DNA of 64,000 nt from a virus (lineage: Duplodnaviria; Heunggongvirae; Uroviricota; Caudoviricetes). The notes under the pieces were generated by a model. The model worked only from the letters and a program-made list of their open reading frames with translations, did not search any database and had not been told where the DNA came from. The DNA lies in the IMG/VR virus record IMGVR_UViG_3300028048_000105. The stretch is one strand, 5' to 3'. A program made the translations under genes and the position numbers. Numbering within the stretch: the stretch's first letter is position 1; every line of letters begins with the position of its first letter. Shown piece by piece: positions 27,736 through 60,224 of the stretch.

Positions 27736-27882
27736 AGGGATATCCGGGAGTCGGACCCGGAAACAGCTTACGCTGCGTCCTCACTATCCCTTTTCCGGGT
27801 ATTGCCCGGAAGCGTAAACAAATATCGAAAGGATTTCTGCCAGCCGGTAACCCTGGCAGCTCGGTTTATGGCCTTTATATGA
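27736..27882 (-). ncRNA. tRNA-like structured leader element, copy 1
   Basis: minus strand: hairpins CTGCCAGCCGGTAACCCTGGCAG, CTTCCGGG-CAAU-ACCCGGAA, CAGC-GUAA-GCUG, T-arm mimic CCGGGUCCGACUCCCGG + acceptor-like GGGAUAG/AUAUCCC. Confidence 0.45.
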
Positions 27883-27883
27883 T

Positions 27884-27915
27884 ACATATTGCGCCATATG
27901 GGGATTCGTCAAGGG
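27884..27915 (-). promoter_or_regulatory. Module A promoter copy
   Basis: ATATTGCGCCAT..ATTCGTCAAG. Confidence 0.45.
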
Positions 27916-27966
27916 AATTTTGAAAGTTTTTGAAAAAATTTTGTTTCATGTTAAATGTGACTTTAG

Positions 27967-27996
27967 TTTCAACCCATGCACCGCATAGGGTACAAC
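27967..27996 (-). CRISPR. Solo CRISPR repeat (TTTCAACCCATGCACCGCATAGGGTACAAC), degenerate stem
   Basis: Immediately 3' of stop codon of 27996..28358 gene; preceded on plus strand by a module B variant TTTCATGTTAAATGTGAC. Confidence 0.45.
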
Positions 27997-28358
27997 TATT
28001 TTCTCTCAACTACATTGAACTTCTTTGTTTTCTCAAATCGCGGCATTTCATTCTCATGGTAATCCGCGGATACATTACAGAGCATATCCCGAAGATTAAT
28101 CCAGTTAATCTTAATCACAGTCATCTCGACCGCTTTTGAACCATCGGAAACCAGTATTTTCTCTCCAAATTTGATTACCGGCGTTTCCACATCTGCATCC
28201 ATACGGAAAGTTAACTCTGTCCGGACCATTTTCCCTCTTGGTTCTTCCTCGTAATGCAGGCAGTTCCTTACGTTCTCAAAACAGCGACCTCCCTGCGAAA
28301 AGTGTTTTTTGCAGGTCAAACATTCCATTTCGTGTTTCCTCCTTCTTTCATAACACAT
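27996..28358 (-). CDS. hypothetical protein
   Basis: 120 aa; module A variant promoter at 28355-28386. Confidence 0.5.
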   Translation of the reverse strand: MCYERRRKHEMECLTCKKHFSQGGRCFENVRNCLHYEEEPRGKMVRTELTFRMDADVETPVIKFGEKILVSDGSKAVEMTVIKINWINLRDMLCNVSADYHENEMPRFEKTKKFNVVERK

Positions 28359-28465
28359 ATTGAGCCTTTTACGACTTCGTCAAAAAGTTTCCGGAAACCT
28401 TTTAAATATTTTTGTCATTTCATATTAAGAATGTAAACAAAACCATTCACGAAGGGAGAAAAATC

Positions 28466-29086
28466 ATGAAAATACAAAGAAATTTCAAATGCAAGGAATG
28501 TGGCATCTTTACAGCAGCTTACGACACCAGGGACAAAAGACTTCTTAGAATATTCCCATGCAAATGCGGGAAAGTTGAGATCAGCGCAAGAGGTATGAAC
28601 TCTTTTGCTATTTTCAAAGGAGACGATTTCGTTGAAAAGCTTCCGATCGAAGAAATCAAGCCAACCGTGGAATACTATCCGGAAGATTACCTTACGATTC
28701 CAGAGGAAATTTATGACCTGATGGAAAAAGCGGAAGGACTTGGGAACAAAATCAACGATACCAATAAACCTGGCGAATATTATAGCGATATTTCCGAGGA
28801 AGATGCTACATTTGAATTGTCTGGATTGTCGGATAACGGCGAAAGTTTAAAAATCTCCGCTAAAGGGAAATTCTTCGATGCATACAGTTGGCATTCAAAA
28901 AATCCCGAGGAAGTCATCAACCGCTTTAAAGAATCTTTGGAACGGTTCATCATTCTTGAAGAAAAAGTGCTGGCAGATGAGATCAATCTGGACAATGTCC
29001 GCAGCATCTGGGACAACGAAGAGTTTGAGTGGTCCAGTGGAAACAGAACACCACTCGATCTATATGACTACGAATTAACATGTTAA
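28466..29086 (+). CDS. hypothetical protein with N-terminal zinc ribbon
   Basis: CKECG..CKCG; module B upstream (TTTCATATTAAGAATGTAAAC..GAAGGGAGAAAAATC ATG). Confidence 0.55.
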   Translation: MKIQRNFKCKECGIFTAAYDTRDKRLLRIFPCKCGKVEISARGMNSFAIFKGDDFVEKLPIEEIKPTVEYYPEDYLTIPEEIYDLMEKAEGLGNKINDTNKPGEYYSDISEEDATFELSGLSDNGESLKISAKGKFFDAYSWHSKNPEEVINRFKESLERFIILEEKVLADEINLDNVRSIWDNEEFEWSSGNRTPLDLYDYELTC

Positions 29087-29140
29087 TTTTTAAATATCCG
29101 TCTATTTTGACGGATATTTTTATTTTTCAAATTTCCTGTT

Positions 29141-29175
29141 GACACTTCACAATCCATATGGTATTATATGTGCAT
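29141..29175 (+). promoter_or_regulatory. sigma70-type promoter TTGACA-N17-TATTAT
   Basis: Consensus -35/-10 with 17-nt spacer. Confidence 0.5.
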
Positions 29176-29182
29176 GAGATAA

Positions 29183-29265
29183 AAGAAGTGCCTGTCTTTT
29201 AACTCAGAGCTTTTCGAATGCGTAGCTTTGAGTTAAGCGACGGGCTTTTTTTATTTATCCGGCAT
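29183..29265 (+). ncRNA. candidate small RNA ending in intrinsic terminator
   Basis: Long hairpin TTAACTCAGAGC..GCTTTGAGTTAA nested in GCCTGTC/GACGGGC followed by TTTTTTT. Confidence 0.3.
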
Positions 29266-29677
29266 AATTGATTAAAATGAAAGGAAAAGAAAACCATGTT
29301 AAAGATAATGAGTTGTAAAAATTTTAATAATGATTATAGAACATATGGCGATTTCAGCAATATGTTTACTTTCTCATGCTCAAAATCAGGAAAAACATGG
29401 GGACAGAACGATTACTATACACCTTCCCGCAGTCGATTTCGATTTTAAACCAGGCACTTAAAACCGAAATATTGCAAAGCGCAGATGGCCGCGGAGAGAA
29501 GAAATTTCTTGATGCGGCTTTTTTATTGTTGAAAAAGTCATGGACAGGTAGCTGAGATGGATTAGCGAGGGACTGAAAATCCTTACAGGGTGGATCATTA
29601 CCACTCCTGTCCACTCCGCAGCGATGCGGTAAAAAACTGAATGGATAAGAGAAAACAGGCACTTCTTTTATCCGTAT

Positions 29678-29749
29678 GCATGTGAAGTGTTGTTGGCGGC
29701 ACACCTGCCTTCCAAGCAGGACGGGCGGGTTCGAGACCCGTCACATGCT
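29678..29749 (+). tRNA. tRNA-Gly (anticodon TCC)
   Basis: Manual fold: acceptor GCATGTG/CACATGC, anticodon loop CTTCCAA, T-arm GCGGG-TTCGAGA-CCCGT. Confidence 0.65.
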
Positions 29750-29750
29750 C

Positions 29751-29822
29751 TGATCCGTAGCTCAATGGTAGAGCACCCGGCTGTTAACCGGGGCGTTGAG
29801 GGTTCGAGTCCCTCCGGATCAG
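29751..29822 (+). tRNA. tRNA-Asn (GTT)
   Basis: acceptor TGATCCG/CGGATCA, D-arm TAGCTCAATGGTAGAGC, anticodon loop CTGTTAA, T-loop TTCGAGT. Confidence 0.75.
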
Positions 29823-29827
29823 CTCAT

Positions 29828-29909
29828 GCGTTGGTAGTCCAGCGGCGAAGACAGCTGACTGTAAATCAGCCACAAAGAAACACCGGAGGTTCGAGTCCTC
29901 CCCAGCGCA
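29828..29909 (+). tRNA. tRNA-Tyr (GTA), long variable arm
   Basis: anticodon loop CTGTAAA, long variable arm, T-arm GGAGG-TTCGAGT-CCTCC. Confidence 0.7.
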
Positions 29910-29913
29910 CTAT

Positions 29914-29986
29914 ACTTCCGAGGACAAACAGCAGAGTCACCGCCCTGTCACGGCGGAGATAGCGGGGTCAGCACCCGTCGGAAGTG
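29914..29986 (+). tRNA. noncanonical tRNA-like, anticodon GTC (Asp); possible pseudogene
   Basis: Good acceptor (ACTTCCG/CGGAAGT) and anticodon arm (CCGCC-CTGTCAC-GGCGG) but D-loop lacks GG and T-loop is GTCAGCA. Confidence 0.4.
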
Positions 29987-29991
29987 TTCCT

Positions 29992-30064
29992 GCTCCTGTA
30001 GCACAACTGGCAGTGCATCTGATTTGTAATCAGAAGGTTTCCGGTTCGAAGCCGGACGGGAGCT
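29992..30064 (+). tRNA. tRNA-Thr (TGT)
   Basis: anticodon loop TTTGTAA, T-arm TCCGG-TTCGAAG-CCGGA, acceptor GCTCCTG/CGGGAGC (one G-U). Confidence 0.7.
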
Positions 30065-30068
30065 TTAT

Positions 30069-30140
30069 GGATCTGTAGTATAAAGGCTATTACACCCGGC
30101 TGTCTACCGGAAAACGAGGGTTCGATTCCCTCCTGATCCG
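30069..30140 (+). tRNA. tRNA-like, anticodon GTC (Asp) with several stem mismatches
   Basis: canonical T-arm GAGGG-TTCGATT-CCCTC; acceptor with one mismatch; anticodon loop CTGTCTA. Confidence 0.45.
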
Positions 30141-30145
30141 CTCAT

Positions 30146-30219
30146 GTGCCTGTAGCTCAGTTGGCAGAGCACGCGACTTTTAATCGCGGTGGCGTCGGGT
30201 TCAAGTCCCACCAGGCACA
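30146..30219 (+). tRNA. tRNA-Lys (TTT)
   Basis: D-arm TAGCTCAGTTGGCAGAGCA, anticodon loop CTTTTAA, acceptor GTGCCTG/CAGGCAC. Confidence 0.7.
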
Positions 30220-30462: not shown

Positions 30463-30545
30463 GCTGTACTGGCTCAACCGGAAAAGCAGCGGTCTTAAAA
30501 CCGCCATTCCGAAAGGATATTAGGGTTCGAATCCCTGGCACAGCG
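30463..30545 (+). tRNA. tRNA-Leu (TAA), class II
   Basis: anticodon loop CTTAAAA, long variable arm, T-arm TAGGG-TTCGAAT-CCCTG. Confidence 0.65.
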
Positions 30546-30576
30546 CTCTCCTCCCTTATCAGGGGAACCCATATAT

Positions 30577-30648
30577 GGCATCATAGCCAAACGGCTAAGG
30601 CGTCCGGTTGCAACCCGGAAGGTGAGGGTTCGATTCCCTCCGATGCCT
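30577..30648 (+). tRNA. tRNA-Cys (GCA)
   Basis: anticodon loop TTGCAAC, T-arm GAGGG-TTCGATT-CCCTC. Confidence 0.65.
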
Positions 30649-30653
30649 CTTAT

Positions 30654-30743
30654 GCAGACATATAAAGGTAACTGGTACCCCTCCACACTGCTAATGTGGC
30701 ATGCGGCACAACCGCTGTCCGGGTTCGAACCCCGGTGTCTGCG
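30654..30743 (+). tRNA. tRNA-Ser (GCT), long variable arm
   Basis: acceptor GCAGACA/TGTCTGC, anticodon loop CTGCTAA, T-arm CCGGG-TTCGAAC-CCCGG. Confidence 0.7.
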
Positions 30744-30817: not shown

Positions 30818-30902
30818 CTCCTTTGTTCTCTTTGCTCACGGGCACGAATCGTGTGGGCGACGCCAGACTTTTCTGTAATTTCATTTAAAAAAGGGATATC
30901 CG

Positions 30903-30985
30903 GGAGTCGAACCCGGAAACAGCTTACGCTGCGTCCTCACTATCCCTCCCGGGTATTACCCGGAAGCGTAAACAAATATCGAAAG
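30903..30985 (-). ncRNA. tRNA-like structured element, copy 2 (3' half only; T-loop GGTTCGACTCC)
   Basis: Same element as 27736-27882 but lacks the promoter-proximal part; abuts the tRNA cluster in opposite orientation. Confidence 0.4.
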
Positions 30986-31091
30986 AGCTTTTAAAAAACT
31001 TACACCGTGTCCTGCTTGAGCCTTTTCAAAGTAAAAGGGCATATACCCTGAGCAAATAAGCTCTAGTATATGCCTTAAATTACATATTCCG

Positions 31092-32876: not shown

Positions 32877-33188
32877 ATATTTTCCCTCACATTCTTTATG
32901 AAATTTTTAAATTGCTATATACGTATATTTTTTAAAAATTAACACTCAATAAGCACCACTGCTCCTTTCAAAGCACAAACACTGACTATTGTGCTTCCAA
33001 AATTTTATTATTTCGTCTTCATTACGTATATTGCGCCATCTGTATAAACGTCAAAATTTTTTACATATTTTTGAAAATTTTTTTAAAATAAAAAAAGAAC
33101 CTCATCCAAAGGCTCTTTTCTTACGATAAAACTTACAAGAATGCTCGTATATTCAATATACGAGATGAATTGTGCGAAGCCACACACT

Positions 33189-34722
33189 CTACGCAACAAA
33201 TACAAGCCCCTCGTTGTGTCTTATGATCCGGCATTTCTTTGCCGGGTAGTTTGTTTTCTTATCACCATACACACGAAGATACTGACCGTTTGACAACTGC
33301 CCGGACAATACATGGTATTCACCCATGTATTCGAACAGGGCACCAGGCATCAGACGGTCCGGATTGTTGTAACGTCTTGTGCTCTTCTCAACGGTCAGCT
33401 GCGACCGCATCCGGTCTGCCTCTTTCCGGCCATGACATTTAACCTGTTCTTCATACCAGCCGGAAAGTGACGGGCACTTTTGTTCAAACCGCGGTCTGCG
33501 GTTCTTTGCAATGATCTTTCCATTGAGTCTGTATGTCCTCTCCCTCTGGTTATTGATAATTGCACGGTCATGTCTCCGGAACTGTACGATTTTATGTACA
33601 TAGGTAAACCCCGGGGCTGCCGCCGGTATCAAACCGGCACCAAGGCAGGCAATGCAGAAAGCATCTGCTTCGTGCATTTGGTTATCCTTTGTCTTTTCAT
33701 AGCCAAGGGACTGTCTTGCCATGGAAGTATCCCTGCCTGTGCAGGCATTCAGGTGTTCCGTGTCGACATGTTCTGAAAGGCTGCTCCAAATATACGGGAT
33801 TGCCTGGTTTAACACACTTAAGGCACCGTACTTTTTCAGGATACCGGCTTTCAGTTTCTCAAGCCGTGCTTTTGCATCAGGACTGGTATGTACCTTTCCG
33901 TGACAGCATTCACACAGCCCGGCGATGTTCTTTAAGGTATTGGAGCCGCCCTGTGACCGTGGCACGATATGATGGAAATGTCCGATATCGTTTCCACACA
34001 GAAGACATTTGCCGTGCTGCTGGTCATAAACTGCAGCATTGACATCCCCGTAGCCTTTCAGCGGTCCGTTCTGGAAATCAATGCCGGAAGTTTCCGGATC
34101 ATCCATTAATGCAAATGCAAAACGGTTGACTTCCAATGTCACATCCGTGACCGGAAGAAACTTCTGGATTTTTTTAATCACGTTAACATGGGTTTTCACA
34201 AGCTGTCCTGCGCTCGGGGTGAGCCATCCGGCTTCCCTTACCCGGTTGCAGAACCGTGCCTGTGTATTCCGGATAATCCTGCATGTGACGAACTTATCTG
34301 CAGCGTACTGTGGAAGTTTCCGCATGACCATGCCGGCTTTCAGCATGGTGCCAAAACGTCTGGCAAGCCGTTGGCGTGCCTTGCGTTCGCCATTGCGTGA
34401 CGCCCGGCGGTGTGCCCGGCGCTCATCGACCAGCTTTTTGATGTCCTTGTTGCGGGTTTCCACAACTGCCGAGAATACAGGTTCCGCATTTTCGTTGACC
34501 ACGCTTACGCCGATGTTGGTGCGTCCCGGGTCAATGCCTGCCATAAGTGGCTGCAGAACCGGCTCATTCTCATAAAGCAGCTGTATGGTGTAAGGAATGC
34601 GGCAGGCAATCCTTGCCTTACCAGCATCAAGCAGCTTTTTGATATATCTTTTCCTTTTTGTCGGCATCTGCGGTTTCCCGTCCCTGCCAAGCACATATAT
34701 GTAGTCTGTATCCGGCATGTGA
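33189..34722 (-). CDS. iscB: IscB (OMEGA RuvC-HNH RNA-guided nuclease)
   Basis: PLMP-like N-term, RuvC-I GIDPGRTNIGVSV, Arg-rich bridge helix, HNH CLLCG..HHIVPRSQGG..N..LCECCH; start at M-PDTDYIYVL with AAGGAGGG RBS (ORF-track 34919 start is an extension through the ωRNA). Confidence 0.85.
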
Positions 34723-34995
34723 TGCCCTCCTTTTTGTTTCATTAAATGTTGCGTGCAGTACCGCCGTCCAGCGTATCGGACAGCACCGGTTGTAAACCTG
34801 TGCACACCTTGTCGTACTGTTTCCCTAAGCTGGGTGGACACTCTGCATTGTGCCGGACTGGGAAAATCCGGCAGTGCCTGCCTTGTGACACGTATCCATC
34901 CATGCTTCTGCTCAACCACCAGTCAGACTGGATGATTCAGCAGCTCCGAAGAACCGCTTCCTCATGCTCGGTTATTCAATTGCCGAGTTTGGTTG
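34723..34995 (-). ncRNA. candidate IscB ωRNA #1
   Basis: about 270 nt structured noncoding region immediately 5' of iscB, beginning at the element-end hairpin; by analogy with described IscB ωRNAs. Confidence 0.5.
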
Positions 34996-37835: not shown

Positions 37836-38135
37836 CTACGGACGAATATGGAATCCGAACGAAAAACGTTCATTGATCTCTTTTCGGATCATGTCCATTA
37901 CTTTCGGGTCATTTGTGTAGAACATTGGAATCCCGGTACCATCCGGTTTGCATTCAATTCCTTTTTTTCGGATCTTTTCTATAATCTTTTCCTTTTCACT
38001 TGCCGGAGGGATATATGATGGCACCTCCGGTGTTTCTGATGCTTTCTTTGGCATATTATATCTCCTTGCTTTATATTTTATATTCTTTTCTGTCACCATC
38101 TTTTGTGGTACCAGACAATATTTCAACCCATACAT
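37836..38135 (-). CDS. hypothetical protein (start probably internal; ORF-track start lies inside a CRISPR repeat)
   Basis: 99 aa ORF. Confidence 0.35.
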   Translation of the reverse strand: MYGLKYCLVPQKMVTEKNIKYKARRYNMPKKASETPEVPSYIPPASEKEKIIEKIRKKGIECKPDGTGIPMFYTNDPKVMDMIRKEINERFSFGFHIRP

Positions 38136-38217
38136 CCCATAAGGGATGCAACTATATCTATGCAGGCAGCGACGATTCAGTATAATATTTCAACCCTGCA
38201 CCCTTGCGGGGTGCAAC
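38121..38217 (-). CRISPR. Satellite mini-array: 2 repeats (38121-38152, 38188-38217) + 35-nt spacer
   Basis: TTTCAACCCATACATCCCATAAGGGATGCAAC and TTTCAACCCTGCACCCTTGCGGGGTGCAAC; perfect hairpins; located between two co-oriented ORFs. Confidence 0.6.
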
Positions 38218-38256: not shown

Positions 38257-38598
38257 CTAGTATATCAGTTTTGTTCCGCATTTCGGACAATGATTTGGAC
38301 GCTGCTCACGGTAATCGTCGATCGTTGCAACCTCATATCCGCAGAATGGACATTCAATATAATCATCCGCATCGTGCCCCTGGTAATGGACATCCATTCC
38401 ATACATAAACCTCTGCTTTAGTTTTTCAACGGATTCTTTTGCTTCCTGCAAAACATCTGCAGAATTCTCGAGCAATTCCACGGCGCCCTCGACTTCCCGC
38501 CCTGTTGATTCTTTTTCGTATGCATCAGCATATGCCCGAAGTTTCCGGATCAACTCGTCCATCTTTTCCCCTCCATATTGTTTTTTCTGTAATTTCAT
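38257..38598 (-). CDS. zinc-ribbon protein
   Basis: CPFCG..CPKCG; preceded by tRNA-like leader copy 3 and module A. Confidence 0.5.
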   Translation of the reverse strand: MKLQKKQYGGEKMDELIRKLRAYADAYEKESTGREVEGAVELLENSADVLQEAKESVEKLKQRFMYGMDVHYQGHDADDYIECPFCGYEVATIDDYREQRPNHCPKCGTKLIY

Positions 38599-38606
38599 TT
38601 AAAAAA

Positions 38607-38750
38607 GGGATATCCGGGAGTCGGACCCGGAACAGCTTACGCTGCGTCCTCACTATCCCTTCCGGGTATTACCCGGAAGGGTAAACAAATATCGAAAGGA
38701 TTTCTGCCAGCCGGTAACCCTGACAGCCCGGTTTATGACCTTTACAATAC
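38607..38750 (-). ncRNA. tRNA-like structured leader element, copy 3 (ends CCGGGUCCGACUCCCGGAUAUCCCUUUUUU)
   Basis: Hairpin + U-run 35 nt upstream of the downstream start codon (intrinsic-terminator-like). Confidence 0.45.
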
Positions 38751-38782
38751 ACATATTGCGCCATCTTAAAAATCGTCAAAAT
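38750..38782 (-). promoter_or_regulatory. Module A promoter copy
   Basis: ATATTGCGCCAT..AATCGTCAAA. Confidence 0.45.
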
Positions 38783-38849
38783 TTTTTTAAAAAAATATTG
38801 TATTTATTTTTATACATAGTATCAACCTTTTATTTTTAATATAATATTA

Positions 38850-41153
38850 TTATCCCAATTCTTCTATTTTTTCGAACGGGACACAACATTTAATTTCTCT
38901 GGATGAAGTGTCCTTTAGTTTTAATACAACACTCATGATTGTATTTGGATTAAAATAAATTTTTTCCCCATATTTTATAAGGTCTACGTTACGATCTACA
39001 AGCGTTTTTAATATAGTAATATATACACTTGCCTCTTCTGCTCCCATTCCTATATAAGGAATTTTTTTATCAACAGCCACTCCTCTGGTTTTTAATTTAT
39101 CTTTTAAATTACCAAGAAATTTTATCTGCGCATCGCTTGCTGTTTTTTTTGAACTAAAAACAGCAATATTAACTGTAATCGCCCCATTTTCGAGCATTTC
39201 TTCTTCCAAAGGCTTTTGTTCCTTTAATTTCTCTTCGTCTTTTTTCTTTTTTTCTACCAAAGCAAAGATTTTTGACTGGAATTCTCCAAACTCACTACGT
39301 CCCTGCTCTTTTGCCCTCAGTTCCTTTTCGAGTGTCTCCTTAAACATTTTCTTTTTCTTATCAATTGTTTTATCCTGCATTCTTGGTGTAATAAGCATCA
39401 TTTTCCCCTCTGCCTTCATCTTCGAAATACGAGAGGCAAGATCAATTAGTCTGGATGCTTGAAGTTTGTTAATATCGCCTTTGTAAAACCCGTCATACTC
39501 ATGCATTAGACGTCCAATTTGATTTTCAGTCGCTTTTATTTTCCCCCATTCATCTTGTAATGCCACGTCCCAGGAATATTTCATATAATCTGGAGATATC
39601 ATACAAAAATCATGAACAAATGAAATTGCATCCTGCATTTTCATTTCACCGATATAATATTTCCCGACACTAGCAGTAAGATCAAACGTAACTGTTGTAT
39701 TTCCCATAACATCTGGATCAGCAAGGTAAATATAGTCATTCCATGTAGGTTTGATACAATAACGATGTTCCGTATCCGGCATAAGTGAGTAGTCCATTCC
39801 AAGGAAATCATAATCATTTTGGAATTCATCCATTTTCTTTGAATTATATTTATCTACTGCATGCGCAAGGTCGCTTAAATCTGCATGTGGTTTTTTCCGC
39901 GCAGAAGATATAATTTCTTCCTGCTCCTGCACAAAGCGATTAACCTGCTCCAACCGATATTCATACGCCTTTGTAAGTTCTGCAAATCGTCCTGCAATTT
40001 CATCGCTAATCTCAAGCGGATCAATCTCACCTTCAAGCATTCGAGACTGTTTCTTTCCAAGAAGTTTTGCATCTATACCAAAAAGAGTAAGAGCTGTACA
40101 CAGATTTCTTGTCCCGCTGCCATCATCTGGAAGAATATCAATGCATAAACAGTTTTCCTTACCTTCATAGAGCCGGGTTCCTCTTCCGATGATCTGCTGA
40201 TACAAAGACGCGTTGCACGTCGGCCGGAAGTTGATAATGGTATCCGCAATAGGAAGATCTGTACCTTCTGTTAAAACCATGCAGTTAATAATGGCGCGGA
40301 CACTCCCGTTCATAAAACCATCAAGCATATTTTTTCTATCTTCTTCCTGTGTTTTCCCTGATAAAACAGCAACACTGCCACGTTCTTTTTCCGGGAGCAG
40401 TTTGTCAACTACTGCCTTCAGGAAATTACAGGTTCTGACAGTAGTACAATAAATAAGAATATGCCGATTCTCCTGGAGACAGTCTGTAAGAACTTTTGCA
40501 ACACTTATTACAGCTTCTTCCGTAATACAACCGTCCAAATCGGATACATTAAAATCCCCCATAGATTTTTTTACGCCTTTCAGGGAATATTTTGCACGGA
40601 CCTCCCGGCAGTGCACCGGACTTAAATATTTATTTTTAATCCCCCAACGAAGATCCTTTGCATAAATAATCTCGTTAAAAACGTCATCTAACCGTACGTT
40701 GTCGCCACGCTTCGGAGTTGCCGTGACACCGATCACACGCTTAGCGCCGGAAAAGTAATTTAAGATCTTCTTATAGGATGGCGCGGCAGCGTGGTGCGCC
40801 TCATCAATGATGATCGTGTGGAAATCGTCCGGCTTATACTGCTTAAGACGGGAGTCATGGCTGAGTGTCTGAACACTCGCAGATACTACCTCTTCCCCAT
40901 TGGAATGGTTTTCTGCCTTTTCTACGCCAAAACTACAGTCGAAATACCGTCTCGGCTGGTTGACCAGTTCATCCCTGTGTGAAAGAATAAGCACCCTTCC
41001 GTATCTCTTAAAGTGGGAGAAGATCCATGTCTTCCCAAGCCCTGTTGCAAGAGCAATCAGGAATCTTCCTTCTTTTAAGCTATCTACCTTATCAATGCAT
41101 TCCTGCTGGTATGGTCTTGATTTTTTCTCTGCTATCTTCTTATTCTGATTCAT
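38850..41153 (-). CDS. SF2 DEAD/DEAH-box helicase family protein (res-subunit-like N-terminus) with long unknown C-terminal region
   Basis: Walker A ATGLGKT, DEAHH box, helicase C motifs QIIGRGTR; 767 aa. Confidence 0.7.
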   Translation of the reverse strand: MNQNKKIAEKKSRPYQQECIDKVDSLKEGRFLIALATGLGKTWIFSHFKRYGRVLILSHRDELVNQPRRYFDCSFGVEKAENHSNGEEVVSASVQTLSHDSRLKQYKPDDFHTIIIDEAHHAAAPSYKKILNYFSGAKRVIGVTATPKRGDNVRLDDVFNEIIYAKDLRWGIKNKYLSPVHCREVRAKYSLKGVKKSMGDFNVSDLDGCITEEAVISVAKVLTDCLQENRHILIYCTTVRTCNFLKAVVDKLLPEKERGSVAVLSGKTQEEDRKNMLDGFMNGSVRAIINCMVLTEGTDLPIADTIINFRPTCNASLYQQIIGRGTRLYEGKENCLCIDILPDDGSGTRNLCTALTLFGIDAKLLGKKQSRMLEGEIDPLEISDEIAGRFAELTKAYEYRLEQVNRFVQEQEEIISSARKKPHADLSDLAHAVDKYNSKKMDEFQNDYDFLGMDYSLMPDTEHRYCIKPTWNDYIYLADPDVMGNTTVTFDLTASVGKYYIGEMKMQDAISFVHDFCMISPDYMKYSWDVALQDEWGKIKATENQIGRLMHEYDGFYKGDINKLQASRLIDLASRISKMKAEGKMMLITPRMQDKTIDKKKKMFKETLEKELRAKEQGRSEFGEFQSKIFALVEKKKKDEEKLKEQKPLEEEMLENGAITVNIAVFSSKKTASDAQIKFLGNLKDKLKTRGVAVDKKIPYIGMGAEEASVYITILKTLVDRNVDLIKYGEKIYFNPNTIMSVVLKLKDTSSREIKCCVPFEKIEELG

Positions 41154-41220
41154 TTTTTAATCTCCCTGTATTTTGTCATGTTTATGTAGTTTTTGCGCCG
41201 CTTCGTGCGGTCTTGTAAAA

Positions 41221-41365
41221 GAAGCATCCGGGAATCGGACCCGGAAGCAGCATGTGCTGCTATCCTCCTGCTCCTTTCCGGGTTTTTCCCGGAAGCGTAA
41301 ACATTTTTCGAAAGGATTTCTGCCAGCCGGTAACCCTGGCAGCCCGGTTTATGACCTTTACATGA
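41221..41365 (-). ncRNA. tRNA-like structured leader element, copy 4
   Basis: Same hairpin series; T-arm mimic CCGGGUCCGAUUCCCGG. Confidence 0.4.
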
Positions 41366-41396
41366 TACATATTGCGCCATCTGGTAAATTGTCAAA
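41366..41396 (-). promoter_or_regulatory. Module A promoter copy (TTGACA variant)
   Basis: ATATTGCGCCAT..AATTGTCAAA. Confidence 0.45.
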
Positions 41397-41653
41397 GGAA
41401 TTTAGAAAGTTTTTTAAAAATATTTTTGCAACCGTATACTGGAAAACCTCATATTTTAATTTTTGAGATAAGCTGTACACATCGTCCGCTTGCAGGCAGA
41501 AAAAGAAGGAACGGTTTCCCATTCCCCCTTAAGTGATTTGTTGCTATCTTCTCTTATCCACAACTTCCTTCGGGACATCCCAGATTTTTTCGCTGATTTC
41601 CTTCTCGATTTCATAGTTTCAAGATAAATAGGCGAGGATTCTCGGTAATTCAA

Positions 41654-43063
41654 TTACCGAGAGGAATCGCCCAGTGGAGTCCTTTTGTAACTATACCGGT
41701 AGCCATCGCCGTACTGCTTAAGCTTGCAGTTTTTGTAATTAACGGTTATGCGTTCACCTTCTGTTGTTTTTATATCAAAGTATCCACTTGCTCTTGTTGA
41801 TACGCGACCGGTATGTTTTCCTTTATATTTTCCTTTGGGTACATCTGCCGTTACGATATCTCCGTTCTGGAAACCGAAGATACGTTTTGGCGTTTTCCCC
41901 AGCTTTTGTATGATGATTCCGCATTTATTGATCTTCCCACGGAAATGGGTGCCTCTTCCCATCGCTTCTGCATACAGGAAGTAGCCGTTTGTAAGGTCTT
42001 TAAATCCTTTTTTTGGTACGGTACCGACACACAACGCATCATAATGGTGGTCTTTCGGAAGGTTTAACTTTGTACGGTTGTATTTCGTCTTCCCGCCTGT
42101 GGAACACTCCACGTCATCAAAGATTGCAAACAGCCCATTCTCTTCATACCGGCGCAGGATGCCAGCCCATGCACTGTAGCGGTTACTGTTCTTCTGCACC
42201 TTGCCATTCATGACAGCCTTGATGCCTTTTAACCTCGCCTTGTCAAGCTTCGTTTTCTTAGGCTTTACATTGATGGACTCCAGCCATTCTTCCAGCTTCA
42301 TGGAACCTTTTTCCTGATTACAGGTATGGCAGGAAAGGGTGGCATTTTTTACACTGTCACTTCCTCCTCTGGAACGTGGGATGACATGCTCCCACTCCAT
42401 GATGCTGTCATTGGATTCCCCGCCGCAGTACTGGCAGGTATGGGCGTACTTTTCCAGAAGGTATTCACGGATCTCTGTACCCGCAAGGGTTCCCTGCTGG
42501 TACTGGACACCTTCGATATCCGGGTTATCCATCAGCTGGGAATCAAACCTTACTGCCTCGAAAGAACAGTCTGTGATGTTAAAGAGCTGCTTTAACCTTA
42601 TGACCCATGAGATGACGTTATCACCGATGGAACGCTGGGATGGTGGAAGCCATCCGTCAGGACGGGAACTGTCATACTGCGGTTTCTTCCCTTCCGGGAG
42701 CTGTTTGTTTCCCCACTTCGGCCTGCGATAGCGGGTCTCCCGGTTCCTGCGGTTCCTCCTGCACTGGCTTCTTGTCTGCAGGTTCTTTTTTACCTGATCC
42801 CCGCGGTGCTCAATCTGCTGAAAGAATACCACGGCGTTGTCCTCATTCCTTACTACGGCAATCCCTGTATACTTTGCACCCGGGTCGATCTTGACCCGGT
42901 AGGTACCTTCCGGTTTGATTTCCCTTGTGTCTTTATCCTTTAAGATGATCACAAACGGAAAGGTTTTGTATACGCATGCCCGCTTCTTTTCCAACAGAAT
43001 GCGTGCCCTCCGCTCAGTGCAGACACCAAGGGGACGCTTTCTTTTATCAAGTGTTATGACCAT
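41654..43063 (-). CDS. iscB: IscB (OMEGA RuvC-HNH RNA-guided nuclease)
   Basis: PLMP N-term MVITLDKRKRPLGVC, RuvC-I IDPGAKYTGIAV, bridge helix RRNRRNRETRYRR, HNH CQYCG..HVIPRSRGG..N..SCHTCN, C-terminal TI-like domain. Confidence 0.85.
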   Translation of the reverse strand: MVITLDKRKRPLGVCTERRARILLEKKRACVYKTFPFVIILKDKDTREIKPEGTYRVKIDPGAKYTGIAVVRNEDNAVVFFQQIEHRGDQVKKNLQTRSQCRRNRRNRETRYRRPKWGNKQLPEGKKPQYDSSRPDGWLPPSQRSIGDNVISWVIRLKQLFNITDCSFEAVRFDSQLMDNPDIEGVQYQQGTLAGTEIREYLLEKYAHTCQYCGGESNDSIMEWEHVIPRSRGGSDSVKNATLSCHTCNQEKGSMKLEEWLESINVKPKKTKLDKARLKGIKAVMNGKVQKNSNRYSAWAGILRRYEENGLFAIFDDVECSTGGKTKYNRTKLNLPKDHHYDALCVGTVPKKGFKDLTNGYFLYAEAMGRGTHFRGKINKCGIIIQKLGKTPKRIFGFQNGDIVTADVPKGKYKGKHTGRVSTRASGYFDIKTTEGERITVNYKNCKLKQYGDGYRYSYKRTPLGDSSR

Positions 43064-43335
43064 AGTTACTGTCTCCTTAAAAATCCAGTTACGGACTTGT
43101 ACTGCGGCTGGCACCACGATGGTGCTGTGGTAGCCAGCTGCTTCTTCTCGTTAATGTTGAGAATGGGTTACGCGGGCAGCGCACTGTCCGGTGTCTCGGA
43201 CCTGACGACTTAGCAACCGCCCATCGGCTTTCATGCTGAAGAAGCACATACCGCCGCCTCCATCCTAACGTAGTCCCGAAGGACTGAAACTGCTCAACCA
43301 TCTATCGGACAGCTTCGCATGCTCTCGCATGCTCG
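43064..43335 (-). ncRNA. candidate IscB ωRNA #2
   Basis: Structured 270-nt region 5' of iscB, begins right after a truncated module B. Confidence 0.5.
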
Positions 43336-43449
43336 GCTATTCAATAGCCGAGTAGTTGACTTCTCCTTTTAAATATGTTTTGTTTACACCCTTAATATGC
43401 AATAAAAAAAGAAGAGCCCGAAGACTCTCCTTAATGTTATCTGCAGGTG

Positions 43450-44614: not shown

Positions 44615-44705
44615 GGTAATATCTCCTTTCGATGATGTTTTGTCTACATCAGGAATATGAAACAAAAAAAGAGCCTGCACCGCTGCAAGCCCTTCTTCGT
44701 TGTTG

Positions 44706-46625: not shown

Positions 46626-47395
46626 AATAAATTATCTCCTTTCAATGATGTATTTGTTTACATCAGAAATATGAGATGAAAAAAAAGCTCCGTCCTGGAA
46701 GATTTGAGGATATGGTAGATGTCCGTGAGGACTACAACGACATCGACGAATACCTCTGATGCAGCCAAGGCATTCAATGTATACAAAAAGCAGTTTCTTT
46801 CCCAGAATTTCTGGGAACGAGAAACTGCTTGCTATTTTTGTGTTAACCAGTTTTGATCAATCAAAGTACATCCTTACACAATTCTTCCTCTTTTTTCAAC
46901 CACCGGGGCATACGCCTTGGATGAATACTGTCCATACGACATGCCTCGCGCACGCGCCTCATGATTAACCTCATTAAGTTTCTCATTCGTCTTTTTCTTT
47001 CTTCTTACCGAAGTATCACTTGTTTTCATATGTTATCCCAATCCTTTGTATATTTTAATGGGGAGAATCTTAAAGACGCTCCCCTCTTTAACCTTAATAT
47101 GGAATACTGGTTTGATATGGAAATATCAGCAGACAGAAACAATAATTGTTCGACTTTTATCTGTACTGACGGACCATACTTCTTTTTCCATGATTCTCAT
47201 TTTTTCTTCCTTCGAAATCTTCTTTTCTCTTAAAAATCCGGCTCTTTTTCTCATTTCATACACCAGTAAAAGCCCTCTTGGAGCATATACATATTCTTCT
47301 TTTTCATCCAAAATTTCAAGATTCGTTCTTCCTCTTTCTGCCAACTTACAAATTTCCGAAACGAGCATGACATTACCTCCCTTCTTATGTGTACC

Positions 47396-47914: not shown

Positions 47915-48895
47915 TCACAAATTTTTTTGTTTTGAGTTATAAAATTGTGGCGAAAACCACAGGTTTTCCTGTGGGAATTAGTGAGTTTTCCTTAAATTGC
48001 TATATTCACAGATGCGTAAAATACGCTCTGATTCTTGAACGGTTCGGGTAACCCCTGCCCCACATATCCCAGTAATTTTCTCCCGCTTTCCTTGCACATG
48101 CAATGCTTGAAACATGAGATTTTCTGTCCATCTTACGCTTCTTGGAATACGAAAACAGGACTTTCTCTCCGTTTCCATACCGGTATAGATTTTCCCGCTG
48201 TTTCTTTATTTTCCTCCCTTTCCCTCTCATCCTCTTTTTACACATACGAATTTTCCTTTCGAACGAATGCCTATTTATGTTTTTCTAATACAAATATTGC
48301 GCCATTTGGGGAATCGTCAAAGGGATTCGGGGAAAATTTATAAAAAAAGAGAGGGAAAATTTTCCTCTCTCTCATGCGAAATTTGGATAGCCTAGAAGAA
48401 CATAAGGCACAGTGGAAGCACAAAGATTGCATATAGGACCACCGTCGCAGCCATGATCGATATACATTTTGCCTTGAAAATTTTAACGTCATGAAGGAAT
48501 GCGCCTGATGATGGGTACAGCTTCTTAACCTGGCCCGTAAATATTGACGATTCCTCTCCAGGTGCGGCAATATCAGCGAATAAATTCCATTTAGTAATTC
48601 TTGAATATTCACTACTCTCAAATGACCACCCCCATATGCCAAACAAGCGTGGAAGACCGCATGAAAAATCGTGAGGATGTTTTGTTTCTCTCAGAAAACA
48701 TTTCTTTTCTTCCGGGTATCCGAAAAAAGTGGTTGAATATCACTAATTCGGATACCTTTTCTTATGTCTGTTTGGTCGCAAAAAGTGGTTGAAAAGTATG
48801 GGCGATTGTAGCAAATATACCCGATAAAAATTGTAATTAAAAAGAGCCGCTTGTTATGACGGCTCTGGTTGAAAAATCTGAAATATTTACTGTGT

Positions 48896-56929: not shown

Positions 56930-58983
56930 ACAAACACTCCCTTCAGAGCCTCTTCAATCTCAGGCTCAAGAGCTTCCAGTTCTGCCATTATCTCTGCCGG
57001 ATCACGGGGAGCTTCATAATGGTAGAAGTATTTGTCAAAGGATATCTGCGTTCCGACAACGCCTGTCTTTTGGTCGCCCATTACTCCTGTATCAATAACA
57101 GTGTCATCAACCCATGCATCGGGCACGTAAGGATATACTTCTTTCTCCATGTATTCGTTGATGTCCTGCTCAAAAGGTACTTTTTCGACATCCTTAAGAT
57201 CAGGATCGGGTACGGGCTTGCCGTTCTTGTCGTAAACAATATCCTCATCATCCTCAGTCTTTACCCCAAATACCTTAATAAAGGCATCCTGAAGCTGCTT
57301 ATTTGTTATCTCGGGCTTATCAAGTTTATCCCTGAAATCAGATGAGTGACTGATGAACCAGTTATACTTAACAGTCTGACCGTCCATGGCTGCTACAGCA
57401 CGCTTTAATGTATCCTTGTTGGTCTCGGATAGTTTCTGCATAGCTTTTATCTCAAACAGTTCATCCCACTTTTCAAGGTCAAATGTAACCACCTGTTTAA
57501 GTGGTCTCTGTACAGTAACAGCACGGTACATGAACTCTTCAACAGGAAGAAGCTCTGACTTGCCGCCGTTATGTCCGTCAATATAGGTCTGGATGATCCA
57601 TTGCATTTTTGCATCCGGAATATCCTTACGCTTATTTCCAAGAGACTTCCTGCGAAGCTCGCCGCAATCAGAAGCATCAATGAGCTGTATCTTGCCTTTG
57701 CGGTTATCATCTTTCTTTGTGCTCAGAATCCACAGATAGGTGTTGATGCCAGTTCGGAAAAAGATATCCGTTGGAAGTTTTACTACGCAGTCAACGAGAT
57801 CGTTCCTAAAGAGCCATCTTCTTATATCAGAAGGGCCCGAACCTGCATCACCATTAAAGAGAGGAGATGCAGAAAGGACGATACCCGCCTTTGCGCCACC
57901 TTCTTCTTCAGTCTTCATGTGAGCGACCATATTCTGAATAAAGAGCATAGAGCCGTCGCTTATTGACGGAAGACCGGCTCCAAAGCGTCCTGCAAATCCA
58001 TGGTTCGCCTCGGCACGGACTTCCTCTGCCTCTTTTTCCCATTTTTTACCGTAAGGCGGATTTGAAACACAGTAGTCGAAGTGCATATCTTCGAATTGGT
58101 CGTCCGAAAGTGTATCAGCGTTCAGGATATGAGCTGACAAATCTTTTGTCTGATCGTATACATCTTTCTCCGTATCAGAAACATTTCTGATAAGAAGATT
58201 GGCCTTACCCATAGCCCATGTAACGCCGGATAGCTCCTGTCCGTAAGGGACAATGACAGCAGGAGCTTTCATCTGCTTGTTTTCATGCCATTCATTAAGA
58301 AGATCCAGAGCATCAGTAATAAACCCGCCTGTACCGCATGTCTGATCATAAAGAGTTCTTACGATACCTGTATCAGAGCTCATAAGCTCATCATCATTGG
58401 CAAAGATCATACCTATAGCGAGCCTTACAATATCCTTGGGGGTCATGAAATCTTCGGCGTCCTCAGCAATCTCATCGCCGTAACGCTGTATAAGGTGTTC
58501 ATATATATCCGACATATCCCTGTCGGTAACTGTATCTGAATCAAAGGGTAAAGCAGAGAACTTCTGACATACGGAATAGAGCATACCGTTATCATGCAGC
58601 TTCTTGCAGGTATTCTCCATTTCAAATTTAAGTAAGATATCACGGGCATTTGGTGAAAAGCCGTTGATATAAGAATCAAGAGCAGCGTAGGTATCTGATG
58701 CTCCGAGATTGTTAAGCCTGAATCCGGTCACGTTATAAAACGCCTTGCCGGAATACTGACAGTAGTTGTCGGACTCACGCCCCCAGTCATCCTCATGCTC
58801 TTCAAGTGCAGCACATACGGCAGCTCTTGTTGGTTCAAGAGCGCACTCAAGCCTTCTGAGAAGTGCAAAAGGCAGGACTACCTTGTTATAGTCTGCCCTG
58901 GATATTACATCCCTAACGTAGTCTGCGATGTTCCAAATCTCATTAACATAGTCCAGATTTGTTTTCTTTTGTTCTTCAGCCAT
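56926..58983 (-). CDS. hsdM: Type I R-M N6-adenine methyltransferase HsdM
   Basis: HsdM_N signature IWNIADYVRDVI, catalytic NPPYG, SAM-binding motifs; 685 aa. Confidence 0.85.
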   Translation of the reverse strand: MAEEQKKTNLDYVNEIWNIADYVRDVISRADYNKVVLPFALLRRLECALEPTRAAVCAALEEHEDDWGRESDNYCQYSGKAFYNVTGFRLNNLGASDTYAALDSYINGFSPNARDILLKFEMENTCKKLHDNGMLYSVCQKFSALPFDSDTVTDRDMSDIYEHLIQRYGDEIAEDAEDFMTPKDIVRLAIGMIFANDDELMSSDTGIVRTLYDQTCGTGGFITDALDLLNEWHENKQMKAPAVIVPYGQELSGVTWAMGKANLLIRNVSDTEKDVYDQTKDLSAHILNADTLSDDQFEDMHFDYCVSNPPYGKKWEKEAEEVRAEANHGFAGRFGAGLPSISDGSMLFIQNMVAHMKTEEEGGAKAGIVLSASPLFNGDAGSGPSDIRRWLFRNDLVDCVVKLPTDIFFRTGINTYLWILSTKKDDNRKGKIQLIDASDCGELRRKSLGNKRKDIPDAKMQWIIQTYIDGHNGGKSELLPVEEFMYRAVTVQRPLKQVVTFDLEKWDELFEIKAMQKLSETNKDTLKRAVAAMDGQTVKYNWFISHSSDFRDKLDKPEITNKQLQDAFIKVFGVKTEDDEDIVYDKNGKPVPDPDLKDVEKVPFEQDINEYMEKEVYPYVPDAWVDDTVIDTGVMGDQKTGVVGTQISFDKYFYHYEAPRDPAEIMAELEALEPEIEEALKGVFV

Positions 58984-59205
58984 TAGTTACTCCTTTATAT
59001 TAAATGTTATTTTCAACCACTTTTTGAGGAAACACCCCTATTAAAATATATCACACATACACGTACGTTTCAACCACTTTTTGAGGAAACACTACTTATA
59101 TTATGGTAATAAAAATAGCCAGGTAGAACAATGTCTACCTGACTATATGCTTTTGATATTTCAACCACAGAGGGTTATATATTTTGCTTATTCAGATATA
59201 GGTTT

Positions 59206-59652
59206 TCAACCACTTTTTGCGGTTAGCCTTTCTTCCATTGTATCACCTGGAACCATTCCGTATCCAACATCCTTACTGAAAGCTTTGTAATACTGTCCGA
59301 TACATTCACACAGCTTCTCAAAATTTTCAACACGGCATTTCTTCCCATCGTTAGCGAAATCATACTGTAATTCGTTACATTGATTACTTGCATTGACATA
59401 CTCTTCCGCAATCATATACATTTCCTTTAATTTCTTTGAAGCAAACCCGGCTTTGAAGACACCATGGTAAAATACCAGTACAGGTCCTGCAACCAACAGA
59501 ACAATTCCTACAAGATACAAAAATCCAAGCCCAATAACAAGAAACTCATATCCAACTGCCTGAAAATATTCAGCTGCTCCAGCCCCGGTCTTTCCGACAC
59601 TCGTCATCGCCTCCGTCGCATGCTGCAACAAATCAAGATACTTGTTTAACAT
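59206..59652 (-). CDS. membrane protein, hypothetical
   Basis: 148 aa with central hydrophobic helices. Confidence 0.4.
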   Translation of the reverse strand: MLNKYLDLLQHATEAMTSVGKTGAGAAEYFQAVGYEFLVIGLGFLYLVGIVLLVAGPVLVFYHGVFKAGFASKKLKEMYMIAEEYVNASNQCNELQYDFANDGKKCRVENFEKLCECIGQYYKAFSKDVGYGMVPGDTMEERLTAKSG

Positions 59653-59775
59653 CTTCTTTTTTCCTCCTTAAATCACAAACAATTTACAATTATGCTGCAA
59701 AAACAAAAGCATGGACTGGCCACACATTTCTCATACCGCCTCTTCCTTTCTGCGGGTTTCCAGCTTTTCCACGGT

Positions 59776-60000
59776 TCAGAGAATATGCTGGCAGACAAGT
59801 CCGCGCTCTAAGATGTTGTATTCAAAATCCGTCGAGGTTCCAAATTCCGGGAAATACTGAGAACCGTGGATATAGGGAATTCCCTTCCATTTCCCGGACG
59901 TATCACACTTGATGATGCCGTAAGAGTTGAGGTCCGGGCACCACACGGGCTGCCCTTGCATGTTTTTCAATTCTTCCAAAGTTAATGCTTCTTTGCTCAT
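59776..60000 (-). CDS. small hypothetical protein
   Basis: 74 aa, preceded by tRNA-like leader variant and module A. Confidence 0.4.
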   Translation of the reverse strand: MSKEALTLEELKNMQGQPVWCPDLNSYGIIKCDTSGKWKGIPYIHGSQYFPEFGTSTDFEYNILERGLVCQHIL

Positions 60001-60002
60001 TC

Positions 60003-60224
60003 TTTTTCCCCTTTCTTCTTATACGAAAGGAATCCTCCGGACTCGAACCGGATGAACAGCCACTTTGTGTCCAGTGCTGGCAAAGCTCTGTGGACTCCTC
60101 CTGTACTGCCCCGTAACAGGAGGACAGCGCAGTCATAGATATACATTTAAAATTCGGAGGTCTGTGGAGAGACGAATCTCCACAGGAAAAGGCAGGACCA
60201 TGAATCCTTTTATGCCTTTTCAAT
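60003..60224 (-). ncRNA. tRNA-like structured leader element, copy 5 (divergent; T-arm CCGGUUCGAGUCCGG, acceptor GGAGUCC/GGAUUCC)
   Basis: Between module A (60225-60258) and the 59776..60000 start. Confidence 0.35.

Follow-up and report, generated by a model that had tools for sequence, protein, structure and literature searches.

Repeated leaders with a tRNA-like three-way junction in a mobile element of the human gut: candidate signals for RNA end formation

Introduction

The stretch of DNA analysed in this work (called the window throughout) is 64,000 nucleotides (nt) long, comes from the IMG/VR virus record IMGVR_UViG_3300028048_000105, and carries on its minus strand five copies of a repeated, structured element. 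An earlier reading of the same letters (the original prediction) had described this element as a series of hairpins ending in a mimic of the T arm and acceptor helix of a tRNA, followed by a U-run, and all five copies were confirmed in this form and at the positions given there. The window is best explained as part of an uncultivated mobile element of the human gut, and the repeat as the transcribed 5' leader of a subset of its operons. Going beyond what had been predicted, we found that the T-arm mimic is one part of a three-way junction, common to at least six leader or trailer versions that are unrelated in sequence.

RNase P and RNase Z, as well as the CCA-adding enzyme, recognize the acceptor/T-arm half of a tRNA, and the junction described here has the features of this half. 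The reading that we favour, and to which we give somewhat less than an even chance, is that the module could be a signal for RNA end formation, at which tRNA-type processing would free the leader and set the ends of mRNAs and of a non-coding RNA (ncRNA), with leaky termination in addition. In what follows, the evidence for the leader and its module is presented and this reading is weighed against a regulated attenuator, a trans-acting small RNA and a role at the level of the DNA.

Results and Discussion

Organization of the leaders and of their promoter

The first 140-190 nt of the transcript comprise two or three hairpins followed by the three-way junction, and whole leaders fold better than their dinucleotide shuffles (z-scores of -2.75, -3.70 and -3.18). 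In copies 1, 3 and 4 the order is a first hairpin (HP1, CUGCCAG-GGUUACCGG-CUGGCAG), a spacer that is first CU-rich and then AU-rich (AAAUCCUUUCGAUAUUUGUUUAC), a second hairpin (HP2, UUCCGGG-loop-CCCGGAA) and the junction. The junction itself consists of a closing helix (P1), a junction strand (UGAGGACG), a hairpin (P2), the T-arm-like hairpin and three to six U. Its versions are called types A to F.

In copy 1 (all leader coordinates refer to the minus strand), HP1 is found at 27837-27859, the spacer at 27814-27836, HP2 at 27793-27811, a type A module at 27737-27790 and UUU at 27734-27736. Copy 3 has the same parts at 38704-38726, 38681-38703, 38660-38678 and 38607-38659 (again type A), ending in U6 at 38601-38606. 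That hairpin and U6 of this copy precede a start codon, as originally predicted, stands, with a corrected distance: the true ATG is at 38562, 38 nt past the U6 instead of 35 nt, and is not the in-frame ATG at 38598 that belongs to the listed open reading frame (ORF) 38257-38598. Copy 4 lies ahead of the helicase gene, with HP1 at 41320-41342, the spacer at 41297-41319, HP2 at 41276-41294, a type B module at 41221-41274 and U4 at 41217-41220. The ORF thought to read through this copy into the helicase start (41150-41395) proved to be an artefact; it begins inside the promoter and is not a gene, since indels of 1 nt break it in the relatives L232 and L235 (L-numbers denote metagenome contigs that were compared with the window). 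Copy 5 (type C) has three hairpins that differ from HP1 and HP2 (60187-60220, 60162-60185 and 60097-60123), and keeps the architecture of the junction with an unrelated sequence (module at 60029-60098, UUU at 60026-60028); the gene that follows starts at 60000.

Copy 2 has neither promoter nor HP1. Part of the spacer, HP2 and a type A module (30893-30987) and U6 (30887-30892) are present, and its T loop is the canonical UUCGACU. The copy lies between a flotillin-like operon and a convergent tRNA cluster and, just as first described, abuts the latter. At the orthologous site of L232, just past the flotillin-like gene, there is a full promoter with a type A leader and an orthologue of the gene that follows copy 3. 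Copy 2 is thus a 5'-truncated relic (the window having lost promoter, HP1 and gene) of a complete cassette and not a special variant without promoter.

Four of the five copies begin about 10-15 nt past a D1 box, a promoter-like 60-nt direct-repeat family with ten copies in the window, all of them in minus-strand sense. The boxes at 27870-27931, 38737-38798, 41353-41414 and 60213-60274 precede copies 1, 3, 4 and 5, respectively, and the remaining ones are at 1942-2003, 21376-21437, 25794-25855, 28341-28402, 33012-33073 and 48278-48339. The D1 box is composed of an UP-like A/T tract, TTGACG, 9 nt and ATGGCGCAATAT, with a conserved near-palindromic box, AUGGCGCAAU (core ATgGCGCAAT), between the promoter hexamers. 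This arrangement supports the prediction of a structured, transcribed leader between a repeated promoter (then named module A) and downstream genes. D1 is not scored by a sigma-70 consensus scan, whereas the promoter of the tRNA cluster is canonical (TTGACA-17-TGnTATTAT at 29139-29167), which suggests an element-specific regulator or sigma factor.

The module has the features of a tRNA top half

In type A, P2 is CAGC-GUAA-GCUG and the T arm is CCGGG-UCCGACU-CCCGG, the 3' strand of the T stem abutting the 3' strand of P1 with no spacer nucleotide. P1 (GGGAUAG/AUAUCCC) had been taken for an acceptor-like helix of seven base pairs (bp); the helix is there, with six pairs plus a G.A at the seventh position. 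In type B (copy 4), P1 (GGAGCAG/AUGCUUC) and P2 (GCAGCA-CA-UGCUGC) are both rewritten with base pairing preserved, the rest being kept, and type C (copy 5) combines P1 GGAGUCC/GGAUUCC with a long P2 and the T arm UCCGG-UUCGAGU-CCGGA. A 7-position helix stacked directly on a 5-bp stem, the pair G53-C61 at the end of this stem and a 7-nt loop with U54, C56, R57 and A58 (tRNA numbering) are found in all five window copies, as well as in types D-F of the relatives. Where a tRNA has its D, anticodon and variable arms, the module has the P2 hairpin.

In order to assess how specific this arrangement is, the window was scanned with a descriptor (a strand of 7 nt, then 8-40 nt, then a stem of 5 bp with the loop U[UCG]CRANN, directly abutted by a 7-mer that pairs with the opening strand, and UUU no more than 5 nt away). 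Its only matches are five on the minus strand, one for each copy; the plus strand has none, and 200 dinucleotide-preserving shuffles of the window gave a mean of 0.06 matches and a maximum of 1. The real tRNAs on the plus strand match only when the requirement for the U-run is dropped; none of the element's tRNAs has an encoded CCA and none is followed by a U-run. When the modules are folded on their own, those of types A, B, C, E and F have the predicted junction as their minimum-energy structure.

Relatives, covariation and conservation

Close relatives of the window were found neither among INPHARED phages nor among PLSDB plasmids or GTDB species genomes. In IMG/VR, HP1 (one chance match) and the helicase protein gave no relative, and a promoter-pattern search and a scan with a 14-mer promoter core returned single chance matches only; what T-arm patterns picked up in IMG/VR and GTDB were genuine tRNAs, coding sequences and a single phage family that is unrelated. 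A 22-nt probe made of HP1 and spacer yielded 27 true loci, which lie on contigs from human-gut metagenomes with lengths of up to 212 kb.

The alignment comprised 23 distinct type A and B leaders, taken from the window and the metagenome loci as well as from the more diverged L232 and L235, which were reached through the helicase protein. In the proposed pairs, 95% of the cells are paired, a figure that drops to 28-56% if the 3' partners are shifted by 1-3 columns, and the observed covariation score exceeds that of all shuffles. HP1 is 100% paired, with wobble changes only; P2 (98%) and the T stem (99%) contain three non-standard cells between them, the other changes being wobbles. Covariation is concentrated in P1, where two-sided compensatory changes occur at four of the seven pairs (three from the switch between types A and B, and one from G1-C72 to A-U in L232), and where four sequences have A-U in place of the G.A at position 7. 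The T loop has three invariant positions, U54, A58 and U60, and the trailing UUU is invariant as well. Position 55, which contacts the D loop in a tRNA, varies between U, C and G, the pattern that a T-loop fold lacking this partner would be expected to show. Compensatory changes and copies in related elements, the lack of which the original prediction had named as a sign of a recently duplicated junk repeat, were both found, and so was the reuse of the leader ahead of the helicase and other genes.

Leaders are far better conserved than the coding DNA next to them. The promoter and type B leader are kept upstream of helicase orthologues with 72-73% amino acid identity, and the leader itself is 88-90% identical to that of the window (86-88% for type A pairs), whereas the adjacent helicase gene has 73-75% nucleotide identity and its third codon positions 53-56%. 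More distant helicase orthologues, with 65% (L237) or about 45% amino acid identity (L238, L240 and L242), have ordinary promoters and no leader. The cassette is therefore restricted to a clade, and a deep covariation analysis is impossible. Within this clade it is mosaic: related contigs combine one leader with at least five upstream and at least four downstream contexts, and breakpoints are found at the transcription start (L142), in the spacer (copy 2) and within the module (L137 and L147).

Unrelated versions of the module and the copy-1 RNA

At least six versions of the leader or trailer (types A-F) have the three-way junction in common despite their unrelated sequences, and every one of them is followed by 3-6 U, either directly or one nucleotide later. 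Besides types A-C of the window, type D (L136 and L157) has P1 GGGGUAU/GUGUCCC, type E (L136) is nearly a cloverleaf, and type F (L142 and L147) has P1 GGAUCUU/GAGAUCC, a long P2 and the loop UUCGAGU. Type F lies about 140 nt past a D1 promoter, in a leader that is organized like copy 5. As a whole, types A, B, C and F are placed 85-145 nt past a D1 promoter and 30-70 nt ahead of a ribosome-binding site, and the motifs CCUCC and UCCUUUC recur in both leader families.

Copy 1 does not stand straight before an ORF: counted from the transcription start, about 400 nt of non-coding RNA extend up to a terminator at 27484-27513. The first part of this RNA past the leader (27591-27736, minus strand) is a structured ncRNA of about 150 nt that is conserved and tolerates indels (8-11 homologues aligned, some with a 29-nt insertion); it has no Rfam match and ends in the anti-Shine-Dalgarno-like CUCCUUUC. 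A variable stretch separates it from the U8 terminator, and the next real ORF starts at 27461. The listed ORF 27162-27698 was rejected as spurious upstream of 27461, where indels occur and no ORF is conserved.

The terminator itself is informative. At 27481-27541 (minus strand), what reads in the window as a canonical terminator (UCCGGG-AUCGUUC-CCCGGA followed by U8) is a degenerate tRNA-like module: its counterpart in L136 and L157, with the same flanks, is an intact type D module, so that two modules enclose the conserved ncRNA there, type A on its upstream side and type D on its downstream side. The window homologue has lost the T-loop consensus, and its U-run is lengthened to U8. Because type D and the U8 terminator substitute for each other at one position, processing and termination look interchangeable in making the end of this RNA.

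A minimal form of the motif was also noticed in the unrelated phage family mentioned above (L194-L231, IMG/VR contigs of about 25-120 kb from the human gut; for example L203:7417-7460). It reads GGGUGU-AUGGUAUUCGU-CCGGG-UCCGAUU-CCCGG-ACACCC, with the same unusual C55 in its T loop, and lies directly 3' of a stop codon; a long, repeat-rich non-coding region follows it.

Comparison with known RNAs and cassettes

Several known identities were considered for the leader and set aside. It is not a tRNA gene or a transfer-messenger RNA (tmRNA): ARAGORN and the Rfam scan at gathering score call only the plus-strand cluster, and a single hairpin replaces the D and anticodon arms. The Rfam scan proposed with the original prediction gave no family at gathering score on any copy, and even at E<=10 there was no RF00005 match, the only match of the tRNA clan being one of 15.1 bits to tRNA-Sec in copy 4. 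It is not a Y RNA either (see also below): the matches to Deinococcus_Y_RNA reached 20.4 and 16.5 bits, where the gathering score is 80, and involved only the part with P2 and the T arm (model positions 43-85). Nor is it an IscB omega RNA; the HEARO family (RF02033) matches elsewhere in the window (43137-43360, minus strand) and on none of the copies. The remnant of an att site derived from a tRNA is not supported as the general explanation, given that the 5' acceptor strand is present and co-varies and that unrelated sequences keep the architecture; a remnant of the 3' half of a tRNA-Leu was rejected on account of this covariation and because the element's own class II tRNAs are not similar.

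The closest precedent, by analogy, would be the t-elements of plant mitochondria (with their engineered or archaeal cassettes), which are likewise non-canonical tRNA-like folds with an acceptor helix and a conserved T arm in the leaders and trailers of mRNAs. These are RNase Z/P cleavage signals, the cut pieces receive non-templated C/A additions at their 3' ends, and their transcript ends were mapped by reverse transcription-PCR on circularized RNA (CR-RT-PCR; PMC1920247). The modules of the window differ in belonging to a bacterial mobile element, in their fixed distance past a dedicated promoter, in having no D or anticodon arms and in always being followed by a U-run.

Bacterial Y RNAs (Yrn1 and YrlA) share with the module a small hairpin next to a T arm with the same CCGGG/CCCGG stem. 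RNAs of the YrlA type, found in phages as well, mimic tRNA and can be substrates of RNase P and of the CCA-adding enzyme, and a Y RNA with a 7-bp "acceptor" was cut by RNase P (PMC4201824). YrlA has its arms in a permuted order (T arm, "acceptor" stem-loop, D arm), while in the leaders of the window it is the acceptor-like helix by which the junction is closed, and Y RNAs have a terminal helix that binds Ro and an rsr/TROVE gene as neighbour, the leaders of the window having neither: we saw no such helix beyond P1, and a Pfam scan of approximately 60 window ORFs found no TROVE/Ro domain.

The PeSL cassettes of T4-type phages resemble the present ones in being repeated units of promoter and hairpin at the borders of variable gene modules, and they are apparently used in modular shuffling (PMC2839356, PMC4122927). 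With its ten promoter copies in shuffled contexts, the cassette of the window behaves in the same way, which is a functional analogy and not a sequence relationship; PeSLs are short composites of promoter and terminator that lack a tRNA-like fold, while a structured leader of 140-190 nt is included here.

Two further systems are worth comparing. In the PR'-6S RNA-tR' unit of phage lambda with its Q protein, as well as in the nut/N and HK022 put systems, a promoter and a short structured leader with a terminator-like signal precede the genes. The cassette shares with them a conserved DNA box between the promoter hexamers, a structured leader and a terminator-like signal, and departs from them in that neither a Q/N-like protein nor a pause signal or put-like fold was identified and in that its terminator-like part is a tRNA mimic. 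The tRNA-like domain of tmRNA also joins an acceptor helix and a T arm without an anticodon arm, and C4 RNA of phages P1 and P7 is matured by RNase P. In contrast to tmRNA, the module has no G3.U70, no encoded CCA and no tag reading frame, and its P2 is a closed hairpin.

Both tRNA-like processing signals and ncRNAs that mimic tRNA are thus kinds of RNA already known. In the literature that we searched, we found no family of mimics without D and anticodon arms that combines a tie to a dedicated promoter, in leaders of a bacterial mobile element, with the bracketing of an ncRNA.

A possible signal for RNA end formation

In the mechanism that we favour, transcription would start at the element-specific promoter, and the tRNA-maturation enzymes of the host, needing just the acceptor/T-arm half, would act on the module. 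RNase P may cleave at its 5' side and RNase Z past the discriminator, as for the CCA-less tRNAs that the element also encodes; in Firmicutes with CCA-less tRNAs, the RNase Z cut falls directly past the discriminator (PMC8549757). By these two cuts the structured leader would be freed, and the RNA downstream (the mRNA or, with copy 1, the ncRNA) would acquire a defined end, and the closing helix together with the U-run may act as an additional, leaky intrinsic terminator. A shared role in making RNA ends fits the observation that a tRNA-like module and a plain terminator interchange at the end of the copy-1 RNA.

A number of observations weigh against this proposal. In the minimum-energy folds, P1 extends into flanking purines and the U-run to 9-11 bp, and a closing helix of this length would differ from the exact 7-bp acceptor preferred by RNase P and would bury the RNase Z site. 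The invariant U-run is more simply explained by termination. The covariation amounts to few independent events (one switch from type A to B, one G-C to A-U change and one gained A-U), as the family is shallow, and the high identity of the leaders could partly result from gene conversion among copies rather than from purifying selection. The module is dispensable for some operons, given that L137, L147 and L232:12391 keep HP1 and HP2 with the tRNA-like part replaced or lost, and six of the ten D1 promoters are not followed by a structured leader at all.

Alternative explanations

The leading alternative, possible but in our judgement unlikely, is a regulated attenuator, with the P1-closed junction and the U-run as a branched intrinsic terminator between promoter and gene. 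Read-through would then be set, a suggestion that we regard as equally doubtful, by an antiterminator of the element or of the host (similar to lambda Q or N, to put or to LoaP) or by alternative pairing between spacer and P1. Much of the evidence can be read in this way. The UUU directly after P1 does not vary among the 23 homologues and follows each of the six types but none of the real tRNAs; the position between promoter and gene is classic; the T hairpins of copies 2-4 and the terminator at 27512 are flagged as terminator-like by a consensus scan; the closing helix is extended and flanked by A/U; and the window homologue of type D is an evident U8 terminator. Copy 2 is so placed that, as a terminator, it would keep antisense transcription out of the tRNA cluster. 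Phage lambda Q binds its own promoter between the hexamers, which is where D1 has its near-palindromic box. As for alternative pairing, the hairpin that precedes the junction can extend into P1 in copies 3 and 5, and the spacer AUCCUUUC is complementary, over 7-8 bp in types A and B, to GAAGGGAU or GAAAGGA, which overlaps the 5' strand of P1; the single informative change in the spacer (UCCUUUC to CCCUUC in L232) is not compensated in that strand. What such a terminator does not account for is the tRNA likeness: it needs neither the T-loop consensus nor G53-C61 nor a junction of zero nucleotides, yet all six unrelated versions keep them. The helix that directly precedes the three to six U has two or three G-C pairs and closes a branched junction, and the U-runs of most types are short (3-4 U). 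In addition, no antiterminator-like protein was found among the window ORFs scanned, many of which have no Pfam match.

A trans-acting function is improbable. The leader, or an excised tRNA-like piece of it, would then be a multi-copy small RNA, whose roles might be, at similarly low odds, those of a Y-RNA-like tether, of a decoy for tRNA-binding proteins or of an anti-Shine-Dalgarno regulator acting through the CU-rich spacer; the targets envisaged for a decoy, no less speculatively, are tRNA-targeting toxins of defence systems and CCA-adding or modification enzymes. Several copies per genome under one type of promoter, loops and a single-stranded spacer kept at the sequence level, and CCUCC and UCCUUUC motifs in both leader families would fit such an RNA, as would the weak Rfam similarity to the tRNA-like part of the Deinococcus Y RNA, tRNA-like domains being known in bacterial and phage Y RNAs (PMC4201824). 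The lack of a Ro/TROVE gene among the scanned ORFs and of a Ro-binding terminal helix, together with a topology unlike that of YrlA, speaks against a Y RNA in particular, and no target was identified. Since a gene follows each copy at a fixed short distance, a role in cis is more economical.

A role at the DNA level alone, in which the repeat would be a promoter-plus-hairpin patch of homology for module shuffling, or a decaying tRNA pseudogene or att remnant, with no RNA function, is very improbable: the mosaic junctions with differing modules, the near-cloverleaf of type E (which suggests descent from tRNA genes), the nearby tRNA clusters and the PeSL precedent would agree with it, but compensatory changes maintain P1, key positions of the T loop are invariant, six unrelated sequences share one architecture with the same U-run on the same strand, and the leader is conserved far beyond the neighbouring genes. 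Use as a recombination patch is in itself compatible with any function at the RNA level.

Other features of the element and neighbouring loci

The window encodes, among other things, a Mob_Pre relaxase gene with adjoining iteron-like repeats, Cas5d, Cas8c and Cas7 together with a CRISPR array, a type I restriction-modification system, several methylases and HNH endonucleases, YopX, two proteins with RRXRR and HNH domains (IscB-like), IS200-like and ISL3 transposases and a flotillin-like protein, in addition to a cluster of ten tRNAs on the plus strand. Ribosome-binding sites are strong and of the GGAGG type. Gene content and ribosome-binding sites point to a large, plasmid- or phage-like element of a Firmicute. 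The iteron-like direct repeats (9389-9798; GGTGATACTA units with spacings of 24 nt and 74-77 nt) and the relaxase gene beside them (7033-8088, minus strand) suggest a plasmid-type region for replication and mobilization. At 10339-12321 (plus strand), an IS200-like Y1 transposase of 140 amino acids is followed by an ORF of 518 amino acids without Pfam match; this is probably an IS200/IS605 element, since the equivalent pair in L235 consists of Y1_Tnp and Cas12f1-like_TNB (TnpB).

Upstream of an IscB-like ORF with RRXRR and HNH domains (487 amino acids; 41654-43117, minus strand), the HEARO/omega RNA match at 43137-43360 scores 51.9 bits (E 8e-10, against a gathering score of 83). With this sub-gathering match directly upstream of the ORF, 41654-43360 looks like an IscB-omega RNA unit; the second RRXRR+HNH ORF (33189-34919) has no HEARO match upstream.

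A short CRISPR array (21777-22146) lies near cas5d-cas8c-cas7 (25811-22398, minus strand), and solitary repeats are found at 14720-14771, 27956-27982 and 38115-38166. The effector genes are type I-C-like, and there is no cas3, cas1, cas2 or cas4 within the window. Solitary repeats or mini-arrays of two repeats are scattered beside the promoter/leader cassettes; in L142 a single repeat lies between the type F module and the ribosome-binding site, and in L136 a mini-array with one spacer abuts a D1 promoter.

The tRNA cluster has a gap, in which we noticed a candidate for a class-II-like tRNA of 89 nt (30654-30742, plus strand) that is missed by both ARAGORN and Rfam, with the acceptor GCAGACA/TGTCTGC, the T arm CCGGG-TTCGAAC-CCCGG and a possible GCU anticodon. 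The "tRNA-???" that ARAGORN reports at 30463-30546 corresponds to a tRNA-Leu(taa) call in the relative L134.

Besides D1, there is a second repeated upstream motif in minus-strand sense, ATTTCATAT-N9-TGTAAACAAA followed by a GAAAGGAGA ribosome-binding site, at 5213-5247, 43379-43413, 44639-44673, 46653-46687, 61925-61959, 62883-62917 and 63815-63849. It is probably a second class of promoter.

Conclusions

If the modules are cut by tRNA-maturation enzymes, they would be a natural case of tRNA-like punctuation of mRNAs and ncRNAs in bacteria, a principle known from organelles and used in synthetic tRNA-gRNA arrays, and a mobile element would be coupling its own class of promoters to the RNA processing of its host. 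A broader hypothesis, which we regard as doubtful at present, is that a lineage of gut elements evolved top-half tRNA mimics as general RNA punctuation, set past a dedicated promoter and at either side of an ncRNA, and hijacking RNase P, RNase Z and the CCA-adding enzyme of the host; this would excise leaders, ncRNAs and mRNAs and release stable RNAs resembling mini-tRNAs, possible decoys for tRNA-directed defence. No description of RNA punctuation by tRNA mimics in phages or plasmids was found in the literature searched, and, if true, it would be a bacterial counterpart of the tRNA punctuation of mitochondria. If the modules are instead branched terminators that need a tRNA-like geometry, this would point to a tRNA-binding factor in the control of attenuation. 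In both cases, the cassette combines a promoter, stabilizing hairpins and an end-formation signal in a regulatory part that is compact and portable, and it is a marker for a so far unclassified family of human-gut elements of 140-210 kb.

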